A DNA stretch of 18,533 nt, taken from the UHGV virus genome UHGV-2195102; one strand, written 5' to 3'. Below the pieces are notes generated by a model, which had not been told where the DNA came from, did not search any database, and saw only the letters and a list, made by a program, of their open reading frames with translations. Origin of the DNA: a virus. Below are positions 6,174 through 9,885 of the stretch, piece by piece (position 1 is the stretch's first letter; the number at the start of each line of letters is the position of its first letter). The position numbers and the translations under genes were made by a program.

Positions 6174-6524
6174 TTAAAGCCCCATCGCAACAGCCAGGCA
6201 GACCGCTGCAACAATCAGTACACGGCGGATTAACGCAGCAGAAAACACCAGGTGAAGGCCGGTCTGTACCGGGAAACGCCCTTCAGCCATCAGCCTGTCG
6301 TCATGTTTCAGGTACTGACCGGGACGGGCTTTGGGGAAGAGCGAACGGTCAAGCCAGTAACCCAGCACTGCTGCCAGCGTGATGAGTGCCAGCTTGTAGA
6401 TCACAACAGGCAGCTGCTGTGGTGAGACCAGAGCGATGGTGCCCAGCAACAGCACTGAGGTCAGCAGCCAGCCGCTGAGGCGAGGTTTTTTAACAGGGGG
6501 AATGAATTTTTTCAGGTTTTTCAT
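6174..6524 (-). CDS. putative holin-like membrane protein (about 3 TM segments), first gene of late operon
   Basis: ATG at 6524..6522 with GAGGA about 8 nt upstream; the ORF track start at 6572 is probably too long. Protein MKNLKKFIPPVKKPRLSGWLLTSVLLLGTIALV... has three hydrophobic helices; sits immediately upstream of the endolysin. Confidence 0.5.
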   Translation of the reverse strand: MKNLKKFIPPVKKPRLSGWLLTSVLLLGTIALVSPQQLPVVIYKLALITLAAVLGYWLDRSLFPKARPGQYLKHDDRLMAEGRFPVQTGLHLVFSAALIRRVLIVAAVCLAVAMGL

Positions 6525-6654
6525 GTGTGTATCCTCGTTTGGTGGAGACAGCATCACAAATACAGGGCGCAAAGGATTTTAAAGCGCGTTAAGAGAGCCG
6601 GGGATACGGGATGTGCAGGATAAACGATGAATTATTCACAGAGGAGAATACGAT

Positions 6655-7131
6655 ATGACGCACACACTGAATCCGGTCATCACTGTCACTGTGTCCGGTC
6701 CTGTGGGCAGCGGTAAAAGTTACGTACTGGCGCGGATAGAAGAGATGGTGAAACAGGAACTCGGAAACAGCGTCATTGTCGATGCTGCTGACGTGGAGAA
6801 TGAGCGCCGTATGAATGGCGAAGATCTGACGACCTGGCAGAAGCCACGGGGTGGCACAGTGATCAGGCTAGAGGAATACACGGGACAGGGCCTGTTGTCA
6901 TACGGCGAGGAGCGTATCTGTCGGACGAATGAGCTGCTGGATGTTATATGCCCCACGGGCCGGCAACCCTGGATACTGCCCGATGCACTGCATGCCACCA
7001 TTGCGGCACTGATGACAGTTTACGATCAGGAGCTGCTCATGAAGGAGTTACGTAAACTCACCGGTCAGCCAACAGAATGTTGTTCGTCTCCGAAGTACGG
7101 CAAACAGGAAAACGCCCCGGATAATCCTTAA
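6655..7131 (+). CDS. small P-loop NTPase-like protein (158 aa), accessory gene of unknown function
   Basis: Strong RBS GAGGAG 6640-6645 before ATG 6655. Walker A motif VSGPVGSGKSY near the N-terminus, followed by hydrophobic-Asp stretch VIVDAADVE. Opposite strand to the late operon. Confidence 0.6.
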   Translation: MTHTLNPVITVTVSGPVGSGKSYVLARIEEMVKQELGNSVIVDAADVENERRMNGEDLTTWQKPRGGTVIRLEEYTGQGLLSYGEERICRTNELLDVICPTGRQPWILPDALHATIAALMTVYDQELLMKELRKLTGQPTECCSSPKYGKQENAPDNP

Positions 7132-7150
7132 GATACCTCCTGAACAGAAA

Positions 7151-7166
7151 CAGCCCTGAAGGGCTG
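7151..7166 (-). terminator. GC-rich hairpin CAGCCC-TGAA-GGGCTG between convergent genes; likely intrinsic terminator for the minus-strand cassette
   Basis: Perfect 6-bp stem with 4-nt loop at 7151-7166, 3 nt past the TAG stop (7169-7171) of the 196-aa ORF. On the minus strand it is followed by TTTCTGTT; on the plus strand it is followed by an A-run, so termination for the P-loop gene is less clear. Confidence 0.45.
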
Positions 7167-7168
7167 CA

Positions 7169-7756
7169 CTAAAAAAAGAAGTGTATTATTGCCCAAACAG
7201 CTATAACGATGATTCCCAGCCCAAGAGCCGATTCTAACTTATCTTTGGCAGTCATTTTTACTGTTGTAGCGGGCGCAGGTAAGTCTTGCTGCTGTGGATT
7301 TTCTGTTAGTTGTTTACGAGAAGAAACATCGCCCCTATTAGTTTGCTTCATGTTGATTACAGATGCGTTATGGGCATTATCAGCAGCAATTGACTGAAGT
7401 TTTACAAAAGTTTTTGAATCTGTTTTAGCCAGAAGTAACCTATTTCCCGTAAACATTGCCTTAAAAGTGATAGTTTTTTTCGTCTTGTCCGCCGCACCAA
7501 GCAAACCTCCAATGACCAACCCTGCACCACCAAAGATTAATCCACCAAGCAAACCTGCGCCTGCCGCCTTACCTATACGACTTTCCTCTTCACTATCCGC
7601 AAGTTCAATCGATAAAAGCTCTTCTTTCAGATTTAATACAATATTTTCAGGAAAGCCTTGTTTTGGTTTTTTGGCAAACACGATGGTACCGAACCCCATG
7701 CTTGCCCACCCTTTAGGAAAACTTCCTGCGATAACCTGAATCCCTGCCATGTTCAT
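7169..7756 (-). CDS. glycine-zipper membrane protein (about 195 aa), unknown function
   Basis: Start region reads GTG-ATG-AAC-ATG; AGGTGA lies upstream of the ATGs at 7756 and 7750. Central GxxxG-rich segment GAGLLGGLIFGGAGLVIGGLLGA and C-terminal hydrophobic tail LGLGIIVIAVWAIIHFFF. Noticeably AT-rich compared with flanking phage genes. Confidence 0.6.
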   Translation of the reverse strand: MNMAGIQVIAGSFPKGWASMGFGTIVFAKKPKQGFPENIVLNLKEELLSIELADSEEESRIGKAAGAGLLGGLIFGGAGLVIGGLLGAADKTKKTITFKAMFTGNRLLLAKTDSKTFVKLQSIAADNAHNASVINMKQTNRGDVSSRKQLTENPQQQDLPAPATTVKMTAKDKLESALGLGIIVIAVWAIIHFFF

Positions 7757-7840
7757 CACCTTTTACATTAAAATTTCAGAACGCAGCATGATGCCGCCTT
7801 TGTCTTTTTTCTGATCCCATGGTAATTCAGCTGTTATTTT

Positions 7841-8827
7841 CTATTTAAGAATAAAACGGTATTTACTGTCAGGAGTGCTTTGCTGATCAAGTAGCAGTGA
7901 ACGACATGGAGCAGTCAAAACCCGAGCATAACTACCATCAGGGCTTATGTTAATGTAACAAACCTTGCCCTTAACACTATAATTTTCGGGGACGGATGCC
8001 TTTGCTGATACAGTAAATTTAAGGGTATGCCAGCCCGTTTTTTGCTTGTAGCTTGAAACCGAATGGAAATCATCTGAGTACTTATTTAACCCTGGAAACA
8101 TGCTGCGCAGTGCGGGGATGGAATCTTCTATTATTTTATCGTTGGTTTTAATGTTAAAAACGCTGGTTTCAGTAGAAGCTACTGCTTTGGCATTTCCCCA
8201 TTTACCAGCGAACACAATCATTCCCACGAAAAATATTGCTACAAGAACTAACACTCCCCCCAACACTACTACATGAGGCTTCCGGCTTCTGGTTGGTACA
8301 GTTGCGACTGATTTTGCACCGCTTTCCGATGGAGGTGATAGAGTTTTACTCTCATCACGAATATTCAGCAGATCATCAAAATAACCAAACACAGCCTGCA
8401 ACTGCTCTTTGTCTAGGCCTTTAAGATGGGTTGTACCGAAATGCTTCAGACAGTATCTGTCACGGTCAAGACGATACCCAGGGTCAGTAAGCGCCATTAT
8501 TTTGCTGACCAGAAGATTACAGTCCTTCATATTCTGGATCTGTTGTGCATATCTCTGAAGGATCTCAACCGCACCATGATAATCAGCCGCAGTCATTTCA
8601 TTAACTGTTTTGGTATTAAGTTTCGTGTGGATCGTCATCCATAGCTCGCGCTTACTTTCCCCCAGATCAACCAATTCATCCATCAATCTGTGTAAATCGC
8701 GTTTTTGCAGCAACGAAATTGGTTGCTGGGCCGAAGGAAGTATGTCAGCAGAATAGTTATGAATGGTAACATCACCGCTGACAACGTTACCCACATCCCC
8801 GTTAACTGTTTGCTTCTCTTTACTCAT
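7841..8827 (-). CDS. single-pass membrane protein (328 aa), unknown function; translationally coupled to the repressor gene
   Basis: ATGA overlap with the repressor stop at 8824-8827 confirmed in sequence. Soluble N-terminal ~185 aa, TM segment HVVVLGGVLVLVAIFFVGMIVFAG, C-terminal ~120 aa domain. AT-rich. No family recognised. Confidence 0.6.
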   Translation of the reverse strand: MSKEKQTVNGDVGNVVSGDVTIHNYSADILPSAQQPISLLQKRDLHRLMDELVDLGESKRELWMTIHTKLNTKTVNEMTAADYHGAVEILQRYAQQIQNMKDCNLLVSKIMALTDPGYRLDRDRYCLKHFGTTHLKGLDKEQLQAVFGYFDDLLNIRDESKTLSPPSESGAKSVATVPTRSRKPHVVVLGGVLVLVAIFFVGMIVFAGKWGNAKAVASTETSVFNIKTNDKIIEDSIPALRSMFPGLNKYSDDFHSVSSYKQKTGWHTLKFTVSAKASVPENYSVKGKVCYINISPDGSYARVLTAPCRSLLLDQQSTPDSKYRFILK

Positions 8828-9249
8828 CTTCTCTTGGTATTTTTGTTCATTATTCCACCTGTTCCTATGGTTACGTTACCTTTGATAACATTCCCCAGAA
8901 CATCTCCATGAATAACCTGTTCCGCCCGTTCTCTGGAGGAGCCAGTAGTCAAGGCCGACAAAACTGAACCTTTGACCTGTAATGGTGCCTGCCGGTAGTG
9001 CTGCAGTAACTCCATTTCATCACGTGATAAAGTTATACCTGATGACTCCCCGGTAAGAATGAACTGTACATTGGCCCCAATTCTTGCAAAGGCTGCAAGT
9101 AACTCACCTCCGGGAACAGCAACCCCTCGTTCATATTTCCCCCACATTTCTCTTGAAACGCCACAAAGGGCTGCTACTTCAGCCTGCTTGAGTGATAACC
9201 GCGAACGCTCAGCTTTGAACCGCGACGCGCAAAGAGAATCAAAATTCAC
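8824..9249 (-). CDS. XRE-family HTH transcriptional repressor (prophage c-type repressor)
   Basis: HTH segment LSLKQAEVAALCGVSREMWGKYERG. Preferred start GTG 9249..9247 with GAGG 5 nt upstream; the ORF track start ATG 9285 would place the plus-strand promoter and palindrome inside the coding region. Divergent from the early operon. Confidence 0.7.
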   Translation of the reverse strand: MNFDSLCASRFKAERSRLSLKQAEVAALCGVSREMWGKYERGVAVPGGELLAAFARIGANVQFILTGESSGITLSRDEMELLQHYRQAPLQVKGSVLSALTTGSSRERAEQVIHGDVLGNVIKGNVTIGTGGIMNKNTKRR

Positions 9250-9259
9250 ATAAACCTCA

Positions 9260-9288
9260 TTGACAATGAGAACAATAGTTCTCATAAT
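9260..9288 (+). promoter_or_regulatory. putative early promoter: -35 TTGACA (9260-9265), 17-nt spacer, -10 CATAAT (9283-9288), with operator palindrome GAGAAC-N4-GTTCTC (9268-9283) in the spacer
   Basis: Read directly from sequence: consensus -35, 17-bp spacing, near-consensus -10, about 45 nt upstream of the ner-like start; the perfect 6-bp inverted repeat overlaps the spacer and -10. Confidence 0.5.
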
Positions 9289-9335
9289 CTATCACATATA
9301 AAACAAACATCATTGCATCAACAAAGGAGACAACA

Positions 9336-9524
9336 ATGACTTCCGAACAAGTTAAAAATCTCTTCCGTCAGCGTGGTATCACGTTTACCCGCTGGGCCGA
9401 AGAACACGGCTACAGCCGCAATGAGGTCTATCGTGTTCTCAATGGACAGACCAAAGCTCGTTACGGCAAAGCCCATGAAATTGCCGTAAAACTGGGATTA
9501 AAACCCACGTCAAATGCGGCATAA
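9336..9524 (+). CDS. small HTH DNA-binding protein in the Ner/Cro position (62 aa)
   Basis: AGGAG 9325-9329 before ATG 9336. First gene of the rightward early operon, divergent from the repressor. Sequence MTSEQVKNLFRQRGITFTRWAEEHGYSRNEVYRVLNGQTKARYGKAHEIAVKLGL is consistent with a small HTH regulator. Confidence 0.6.
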   Translation: MTSEQVKNLFRQRGITFTRWAEEHGYSRNEVYRVLNGQTKARYGKAHEIAVKLGLKPTSNAA

Positions 9525-9576
9525 ATTTTCCACATATGCAACAGGTTATCACATATTGCAAAAATGGAAATGTGAC

Positions 9577-9885
9577 ATGAGTAAAGTAAATATTTCCAGT
9601 TCTGGGACCCGCATCCTACGTGTACTCAAAGCTCTACGCGGTCATGCTCTGAACGGTGTTTCTAACGGTGAACTGGCATCAGCCCTGGGGGAGTCCCCGG
9701 CGAATATCAATCGAGCACTTAATACCCTTATTGAAGAGGGACTGGCCATGAAATTAGAGAACGGACGTTTCGCACCGGGAATCCAGTTACTACAGATCGC
9801 CATGGCTCACAGTCACGAGATGGCGCGTGCACAGGATCGTATTAACGAAATCAACCAACGAGTTATTTCAGGTAGTCGTTTGTAA
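9577..9885 (+). CDS. winged-helix DNA-binding protein (IclR-like N-terminal HTH pattern), about 102 aa
   Basis: Preferred start ATG 9577 (the ORF track start 9514 overlaps the ner-like gene). Sequence TRILRVLKALRGHALNGVSNGELASALGESPANINRALNTLIEEGLAMKLENGRF resembles a winged-helix HTH. Confidence 0.5.
   Translation: MSKVNISSSGTRILRVLKALRGHALNGVSNGELASALGESPANINRALNTLIEEGLAMKLENGRFAPGIQLLQIAMAHSHEMARAQDRINEINQRVISGSRL

Follow-up and report, generated by a model that had tools for sequence, protein, structure and literature searches.

A sequence motif in the tail of a BcepMu-like prophage repressor recurs at the N-terminus of the membrane protein encoded next to it

In amyloid-signaling pairs, such as Bab/Agp of Escherichia coli (BASS11), HET-S/NWD2 of fungi and BASS1–10, a motif at the C-terminus of one protein recurs at the N-terminus of its neighbor. 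Here, we describe a formally similar arrangement around a prophage repressor, found in an 18,533-nucleotide (nt) stretch of the virus genome UHGV-2195102 (the window, meaning this stretch at its full length), which is identified as a BcepMu-like transposable prophage of E. coli. The gene for its helix-turn-helix (HTH) repressor is followed on the same strand by two open reading frames (ORFs): ORF1, encoding an inner-membrane protein, and ORF2, encoding a glycine zipper membrane protein. The direct counterparts of the repressor and of ORF1 are gp17 and gp18 of phage BcepMu; the papers on BcepMu and on phage KS10 assign no function to gp18. Among host proteins, the relative is Flk (Fluke/RflH), which regulates the switch of flagellar type III secretion in Salmonella and E. 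coli. In phage lambda, rexA and rexB lie directly after the repressor gene cI, on its strand. Phage antirepressors provide a further point of reference: Qtip of VP882 and RstC of CTXphi/RS1 inactivate repressors by sequestration or aggregation.

The correspondence with amyloid signaling, the closest formal analogy for the motif pair, lies in a motif of ~20–25 residues that is punctuated by Gly/Asn, contains short hydrophobic stretches and is more alike within pairs than between pairs. The carriers are different; they are an HTH repressor and a membrane protein with an Flk_N domain, rather than a Bell/HeLo/BB death domain protein and an NLR/TPR receptor. With BcepMu gp17/gp18, the locus shares gene position, a 4-nt gene overlap and the pairing of repressor tail and partner N-terminus (in BcepMu, QVFHGSVGQAV... 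versus QEFNKPVGQAI...), and PHROG cross-hits connect phrog_10002, 5825 and 6521; the BcepMu pair, however, belongs to another motif class, the periplasmic segment of gp18 is different and shorter, and gp19/gp20 rather than ORF2 follow. Flk resembles ORF1 in its helical Flk_N domain and in having a cytoplasmic domain anchored by a single C-proximal helix, but Flk possesses neither the N-terminal motif nor a periplasmic domain and is not encoded beside a repressor. By analogy with Qtip and RstC, ORF1 may be a small phage protein that controls a repressor by binding rather than cleavage, for which a LexA-like autocleavage domain would be unneeded; Qtip and RstC, in contrast, are soluble, induced on demand and encoded away from the repressor, whereas ORF1 is membrane-bound, predicted to be made together with the repressor, and mirrors its tail.

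The repressor ends in ...EQVIHGDVLGNVIKGNVTIGTGGIMNKNTKRR, and ORF1 starts with MSKEKQTVNGDVGNVVSGDVTIHNYS (feature coordinates are collected in Table 1). Local alignment of the repressor tail with the ORF1 N-terminus scores 55, compared to 19.8 +/- 4.1 for shuffled sequences, with 0/2000 shuffles reaching 55. A six-frame motif scan, covering the window and the complete 42-kb IAI39 prophage locus, returned these two matches only. The two coding stretches are 66 nt apart, and this proximity would suit a functionless resemblance, left over from local duplication or gene conversion. Such a reading is largely refuted, and we hold it to be extremely improbable: different codons are used at seven of the 11 identical motif residues, with a nucleotide identity of 32/54, which points to selection on the protein sequence and argues against gene conversion; the motif residues are invariant in homologs down to 44% identity (for ORF1, G12-N13-V14-V15-S16-G17, V19, I21 and Y24 across 20 homologs of 44–82% identity); and the pairing is kept in two phage families and in no fewer than four diverged classes of motif.

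Table 1. Features of the immunity region, in window coordinates.
Feature	Position	Strand	Basis
Prophage repressor, XRE-type HTH, 141 aa from the probable start GTG 9249	8824..9249	-	HTH_31/HTH_3 matches
Tail motif GDVLGNVIKGNVTI at the repressor C-terminus, with the basic end NKNTKRR after it	8866..8907	-	motif scan
ATGA overlap, repressor stop / ORF1 start	8824..8827	-	sequence
ORF1, 328 aa, bitopic inner-membrane protein, phrog_10002	7841..8827	-	PHROG; counterpart of BcepMu gp18
ORF1 N-terminal motif GDVGNVVSGDVTI, matching the repressor tail	8762..8800	-	local alignment
ORF1 cytoplasmic all-helical Flk_N domain, residues ~30-157	8357..8740	-	NCBIfam, Pfam, AF2
ORF1 transmembrane segment, residues ~186-208	8204..8272	-	hydropathy peak 3.05; AF2 helix 189-203
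ORF1 periplasmic alpha/beta domain, residues ~220-328, conserved Cys pair	7844..8170	-	AF2 pLDDT >90
ORF2, 193 aa, PH_gly_zipper membrane protein, phrog_12025	7169..7750	-	PHROG; Pfam on homologs
ORF2 glycine zipper, residues ~60-88, within the predicted PH-like domain	7487..7573	-	sequence GKAAGAGLLGGLIFGGAGLVIGGLLGAADK
ORF2 C-terminal hydrophobic anchor, residues ~171-193	7172..7240	-	hydropathy 2.49
Terminator-like hairpin closing the repressor-ORF1-ORF2 unit	7150..7167	-	2 nt past ORF2 stop
Mosaic block repressor + ORF1 + ORF2	7120..9283	.	blastn breakpoints; exchanged relative to ST131-type prophage

The pairing recurs in other lineages with motifs of their own. In Burkholderia savannae, the repressor tail KQQQVFRKEVGQAVQVEG is matched by the partner N-terminus AKQEFNKPVGQAIQA; in BcepMu gp17 and gp18, QEQVFHGSVGQAVKVEG is matched by GKQEFNKPVGQAIQAG, and in a Ralstonia phage, QVFHQAPTGDIFGRDLV by QEFSGPVGDVAGRDII. 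In a cross-lineage matrix, cognate combinations of tail and N-terminus score 36–60 and non-cognate combinations 16–31. At least four motif classes can be told apart; the class matrix is diagonal for 3/4 of them, and the similarity among tails correlates with the similarity among N-termini at 0.91, a value that carries no phylogenetic correction. In Salmonella and Serratia, the repressors retain the tail motif even when their HTH domain is a different one. No partner accompanies repressors that lack the tail (ST131 type, Citrobacter). In Ralstonia phage YO107_2 (locus L047, 3774–4253) and in locus L068 (2020–2484), a third protein bearing the motif at its N-terminus, small and with several transmembrane (TM) segments or a TM anchor, is encoded beside the partner, so that a single repressor tail may be matched by several proteins.

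A profile search of 1.84 billion representatives identified 114 relatives of two sorts: ~200-amino acid (aa) tail-anchored proteins made up of the motif, Flk_N and a C-terminal TM segment, and stand-alone versions of the periplasmic domain (~40 representatives, 120–200 aa). The short homologs of 180–220 aa have a Flk-like topology, and host Flk proteins are marginal in the family (E about 1e-4). The pairing was scored in 91 IMG/VR loci drawn for two subgroups, by comparing the upstream ORF, ending −4 to +22 nt from the partner gene, with the partner N-terminus and taking z>=4 against shuffles as significant. This threshold was reached by 55 of the 62 distinct adjacent pairs, with the tail ...SINVSGQGNRVAGRDYNENKK followed by the partner MTVNSTGEQNRVAGRDFNEN... 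as an example. Of the seven failures, one is BcepMu, borderline at z 3.4; the other six were inspected, and five of these keep a tailed HTH protein upstream, while one (L130) is cut at the contig end. An extra gene is inserted in L062/L079 and L068/L105, and the partner start is miscalled in L085. An HTH domain was found in eight of the ten upstream ORFs tested, from the XRE and Phage_CI_repr families. Many of the loci are P2-like (Peduoviridae) prophages in which the module sits between cox and int. In P2-like prophages (E. coli FORC_031, L140, 3501–5955; phage 520873, L139, 2459–3485), a gene for a DUF2511 protein follows the module, which has the cox-like gene and int on either side. In phage 520873, the partner gene is unannotated and was matched in three pieces; it is possibly a pseudogene.

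Two motif classes are present in E. coli: the class of the window in ~115/5426 complete genomes, and the P2-like class, annotated as hypothetical, in ~520/5426. This bears on a possible third party, a host protease or chaperone, that would recognize the motif while ORF1 acts as a membrane decoy or adaptor setting repressor stability, in the manner of lambda CIII/CII/FtsH. The location of the motif at exposed ends of both proteins, its disorder in the ORF1 model and the basic cluster that follows it in all repressors are consistent with such a factor. The coexistence in E. coli of different motif classes, in which the partners change together, is better explained by pair-specific recognition than by a common host factor, and third-party recognition appears very doubtful.

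With little more than even confidence, we lean toward a model in which ORF1 is a membrane protein dedicated to the repressor, with which it would pair by the shared motif, and ORF2 is independent cargo in the lysogenic operon. ORF1 would be translated in step with the repressor; the tail and N-terminal motifs would pair as short Gly/Asn-punctuated β-strands, and this pairing would anchor some of the repressor at the inner membrane. How much repressor is available would then follow from the state of the membrane protein, possibly from a cue in the envelope or periplasm, and would in turn govern immunity and the lysis–lysogeny switch. For ORF2, a putative PH-like protein with an inserted glycine zipper hairpin and a C-terminal anchor, the likeliest site of action in the lysogen would be the inner membrane, on its cytoplasmic side. 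The repressors of such prophages are without a LexA-like cleavage domain, so some route such as ORF1-dependent availability would be needed for induction. Gene order, coupling, domain content, the pairing and co-variation of the motifs and the separability of ORF1 and ORF2 are shown here; that the two proteins bind, that the repressor is tethered, which of them controls the other and what phenotype results are inferred from sequence and comparative genomics.

Several points weigh against this model. The binding between tail and N-terminus is a prediction from sequence; many of the 62 pairs are closely related, and the independent support amounts to about four motif classes. Expression of both genes in the lysogen is predicted from gene layout. 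ORF1 could sequester, stabilize or merely localize the repressor, or the repressor could control ORF1. As to ORF2, its AlphaFold2 (AF2) model is poor (mean predicted local distance difference test, pLDDT, 48), and the PH_gly_zipper family is uncharacterized. Lastly, E. coli, Morganella and Burkholderia all have loci in which ORF1 is followed by ORF2, which leaves room for a functional link between the two.

A more specific version, which we regard as unlikely, is that the tail and the partner N-terminus form a bacterial amyloid-type signaling pair acting on the repressor. A cue from the envelope or periplasm would lead the membrane partner to assemble, and its N-terminal motif would template the repressor tail into an ordered β-assembly; the repressor would thus be withdrawn from its operators, resulting in RecA-independent, prion-like induction or immunity control. 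Orthogonal motif classes would prevent cross-talk between co-resident prophages.

The domain organization of ORF1 was examined using an AF2 model built on the 20 homologs. Residues 1–29 are disordered (pLDDT <50), while the helical domain (residues 30–157) and the α/β domain (residues 220–327) are predicted at pLDDT >90; the single hydrophobic segment extends over ~residues 181–213. Positions 14–143 of the NCBIfam Flk model (NF007987) match ORF1 residues 19–147 at E 2.9e-12; the score against the full-length Flk model is 46.6 bits, far under the family cut-off of 353 bits. BLASTP against E. coli Flk gives 25% identity over 133 aa, and homologs of ORF1 carry precomputed matches to PF27202 (Flk_N), a new Pfam domain. 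Chromosomal Flk (E. coli K-12 flk, L015; P0130–P0147) appears as a set of distant, motif-less members of a mostly ~200-aa phage family, from which it is a possibility that flk derives from a prophage gene. Structure searches found no informative relative, sequence searches of the PDB with the family profiles of both ORF1 and ORF2 returned nothing, and literature searches yielded nothing on the two proteins by accession or on membrane-anchored partners of prophage repressors.

ORF1 continues for ~120 residues past its TM segment, and its topology is thus other than the tail-anchored one that lacks a periplasmic domain. In the C-terminal domain, C289 and C307 are nearly invariant among homologs. 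Homologs of the domain include 175–177-aa lipoproteins, whose signal peptides contain a lipobox and whose genes lie just downstream in L027 and L042 (BLASTP 1e-15 and 8e-14); these support a periplasmic location for the domain. L042/L043 encode a 197-aa tail-anchored partner and, just downstream, a separate 177-aa lipoprotein homologous to the periplasmic domain; L027 encodes a full-length ORF1 plus a separate lipoprotein version. The periplasmic domain would accordingly be an add-on, fused to ORF1 in this lineage and a separate lipoprotein elsewhere, and the fusion suggests a joint action of the two parts, the cytoplasmic partner and the periplasmic domain.

These features invite the alternative that ORF1 mainly serves superinfection exclusion, with the periplasmic domain blocking receptor use or DNA entry and the motif used for self-assembly or for co-production with the repressor. 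Lysogeny-expressed periplasmic or lipoprotein exclusion factors are common, among them Cor, Llp and Glo of K139. The domain is conserved, confidently folded and holds the Cys pair, and its stand-alone lipoprotein versions occupy the same lysogenic slot. Nonetheless, most family members are ~200-aa tail-anchored proteins that lack a periplasmic domain yet retain the motif along with a tailed repressor, the periplasmic segment of the Burkholderia proteins is small and of another kind, and self-assembly alone leaves the co-variation of motif and tail unexplained. We judge exclusion unlikely as the main role of ORF1; it is possible as a role of the periplasmic domain.

The gene layout bears on how ORF1 and ORF2 are expressed. 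The earlier note had described two same-strand ORFs after the repressor, the first with one hydrophobic segment and the second with a glycine zipper and a hydrophobic tail, together with an ATGA stop/start overlap and a hairpin at the end of the unit, and all of these are present. Its expectation that ORF1 is made whenever the repressor is gains weight: the overlap would couple ORF1 translation to that of the repressor, the same 4-nt overlap is seen in Salmonella, Serratia, B. savannae and BcepMu gp17/gp18, and an arrangement with either this overlap or no more than 22 nt between the genes is kept from E. coli to Burkholderia and in P2-like prophages. The repressor gene diverges from the ner-like gp16 gene at 9336–9524. 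RefSeq starts the repressor at ATG 9285 (153 aa); the true start is probably GTG 9249, as GAGG lies 5 nt upstream and the corresponding start was called for the Salmonella homolog. A strong sigma-70-like promoter match at 9260–9288 (+) (TTGACA-17-CATAAT, 11/12), directed at the ner-like gene, falls inside the annotated 5′ end of the repressor, which also supports the shorter start.

At the far end of the unit, the terminator-like hairpin has a 7-bp stem of about −12 kcal/mol and is followed by UUUCUGUU; it is the sole such site in 6400–9700 and is statistically not unusual (z −1.6 versus shuffles). No terminator was called between ORF1 and ORF2, the next candidate being this hairpin. The 81-nt spacer between the two genes (7760–7840, −) contains a small hairpin (GCGGCAUCAUGCUGC), then a U-rich stretch and a 14-codon ORF; neither the hairpin (z −1.4) nor the ORF is statistically notable. 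Transcription from the repressor promoter probably continues through ORF2 and ends at the closing hairpin; the shared strand, the lack of a called terminator between the genes and the hairpin after ORF2 make this readthrough plausible.

An upstream HTH protein gene with a 4-nt overlap is also the typical layout of toxin–antitoxin loci, and the repressor has weak MqsA, HipB and PezA-type HTH matches. ORF1 could on this basis be a membrane toxin held in check by the repressor tail, in the style of XRE-antitoxin/toxin pairs, that is freed upon loss of the repressor or the prophage. Such an addiction pair is very improbable in our view: Pfam, PHROG, PADLOC and NCBIfam recognize no toxin family in ORF1, a near-identical motif on both proteins is foreign to toxin–antitoxin pairs, and Flk, the distant host relative, is non-toxic according to published work.

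The ORF caller placed ORF2 at 7169–7759 (−), with 196 aa from a GTG. The real start is almost certainly ATG 7750, giving 193 aa that begin MAGIQV, because AAGGTG lies 6 nt upstream and RefSeq and all homologs use this ATG. PF27000 (PH_gly_zipper) is precomputed on ORF2 homologs at 97%, 71% and 66% identity. The low-confidence AF2 model has six strands, with β-strands on both sides of the zipper, and then a long helix (residues 112–140), a secondary structure that would fit a PH-like β-sandwich and C-terminal helix with the zipper inserted; no PDB sequence relative was found. A Burkholderia homolog (P0037) possesses a SHOCT domain (PF09851) in place of the C-terminal anchor. Literature searches returned nothing on PH domains with glycine zippers in phages. 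For both proteins, Pfam, PHROG, NCBIfam and PADLOC provide no functional family beyond Flk_N, and PADLOC returned nothing for ORF2 and only noise (E 0.014) for ORF1.

ORF1 and ORF2 are separable. In sequence type 131 (ST131)-type relatives, the whole block 7120–9283 is absent, and a different, shorter repressor and other cargo, including a Dam methylase, take its place. E. coli variant B has a 203-aa protein and a DUF2441 protein in place of ORF2, but its repressor and ORF1 are retained (95% identity); a second blastn breakpoint near 7830 here parts the two genes. Salmonella (68% identity) and Serratia (53–61%) prophages have the repressor and ORF1 with the ATGA overlap and other genes downstream. 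In B. savannae and in BcepMu gp17/gp18, ORF1 likewise directly follows the repressor, and the next gene varies. Conversely, a Citrobacter prophage carries an ORF2 homolog (71%) directly after an unrelated Phage_CI_repr repressor, without ORF1. Both genes are found in the same order in Morganella and B. savannae prophages; the latter locus overturned a provisional view that the two co-occur in E. coli and Morganella only. The PH/zipper domain of the B. savannae ORF2 is 57% identical, compared to 51–68% for core phage genes. This core-like divergence, along with the presence of ORF2 both with and without ORF1, points to an old but dispensable occupant of a variable slot.

The slot lies between the immunity genes and the holin. 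Its cargo elsewhere includes Dam methylases, and BcepMu carries gp19/gp20 where ORF2 sits. The two-TM protein gp19 (L046, 3664–4200) has a weak PADLOC match (E 6.7e-5) to a 2TM effector of the type found in CBASS (cyclic-oligonucleotide-based antiphage signaling systems), which hints that the slot gathers membrane-active cargo. A place for ORF2 in the lysis cassette, suggested by its position beside the holin on the same strand, was set aside as the main explanation, since the terminator-like hairpin and an opposite-strand gene intervene.

The earlier note had likened the cassette to lambda cI-rexA-rexB. In an alternative built on that likeness, ORF1 and ORF2 would jointly form a lysogeny-expressed exclusion or abortive-infection system with the glycine zipper protein as a pore-forming effector. 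The part of the comparison that stands is the layout: both genes directly follow the repressor on its strand and in its unit, are expected to be expressed in the lysogen and encode membrane proteins, and the operon ends before the next unit. The order is the same in E. coli, Morganella and B. savannae, and other cargo of the slot is membrane-active or defense-like (gp19, Dam methylases). The notion of a single two-gene unit does not hold: each gene is found without the other; ORF1 is invariably tied to the repressor tail, also in P2-like prophages without ORF2; PADLOC is negative for both; neither protein resembles RexA or RexB in sequence or profile; and ORF1 is linked to the repressor protein by a motif, while Rex is not. 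We therefore regard a joint system as improbable, whereas an exclusion or abortive-infection role for ORF2 is plausible but unproven. The suggestion that the region is a variable cargo hotspot applies to the stretch between the immunity genes and the holin; ORF1 is part of the immunity module rather than cargo, a constant partner of the repressor tail. Regarding protein families, the absence of a recognized defense family is upheld by PADLOC, and the two proteins described as being of unknown family can now be named (Flk_N and PH_gly_zipper), both families being uncharacterized. The greater AT content ascribed to the cassette is real, with a GC content of 0.40–0.45 across 7000–9000 compared to 0.52–0.63 in the late genes, but the low-GC tract spans ~7000 to ~10300 and includes the repressor and early regulators; AT-richness common to these genes is no sign that the two ORFs are foreign.

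The 2.25-kb region is 100% identical in DNA sequence to prophages of IAI39, CE10 and ~95 other complete genomes. The IAI39 copy is annotated with MuA/MuB-like transposition genes, Gam, Mor and the BcepMu gp16-type Ner-like gene, as well as with a Mu-type portal (portal_Mu) and myovirus tail genes; two of its prophage genes contain internal stops. At the IAI39 locus (L001, ~30500–34600), one end of the transposable prophage adjoins a truncated Lom-family gene and lambdoid tail-fiber genes beside sitABCD, indicating that the element inserted into what is left of an older prophage. Between ORF2 and the holin, a P-loop protein gene (6655–7131, +) encodes 158 aa, compared to 242 aa in ST131-type prophages; homology to the ST131 variant ends at 7119 (junction 7119/7120), so that its 3′ end was apparently cut off by the swapped immunity block. 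The 158-aa version is present in another variant (L042) as well. Rfam identified no RNA family within the window.

The repressor–partner module is widespread, occurring in two unrelated groups of temperate phages (BcepMu-like and P2-like) and in several bacterial orders, with the partner annotated as "hypothetical" or "membrane protein". A membrane gene behind a repressor is not always a defense moron, and the slot occupied by ORF2 is a defined hotspot for functions that would be expressed at the membrane of the lysogen. A membrane protein that mirrors the repressor tail offers a testable link between the cell envelope and the lysis–lysogeny switch, and may carry the short-motif templating logic of cell-death systems over to gene regulation. 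If the amyloid-type version were true, it would be the first case of amyloid signaling acting on a transcription factor and on a lysis–lysogeny decision.

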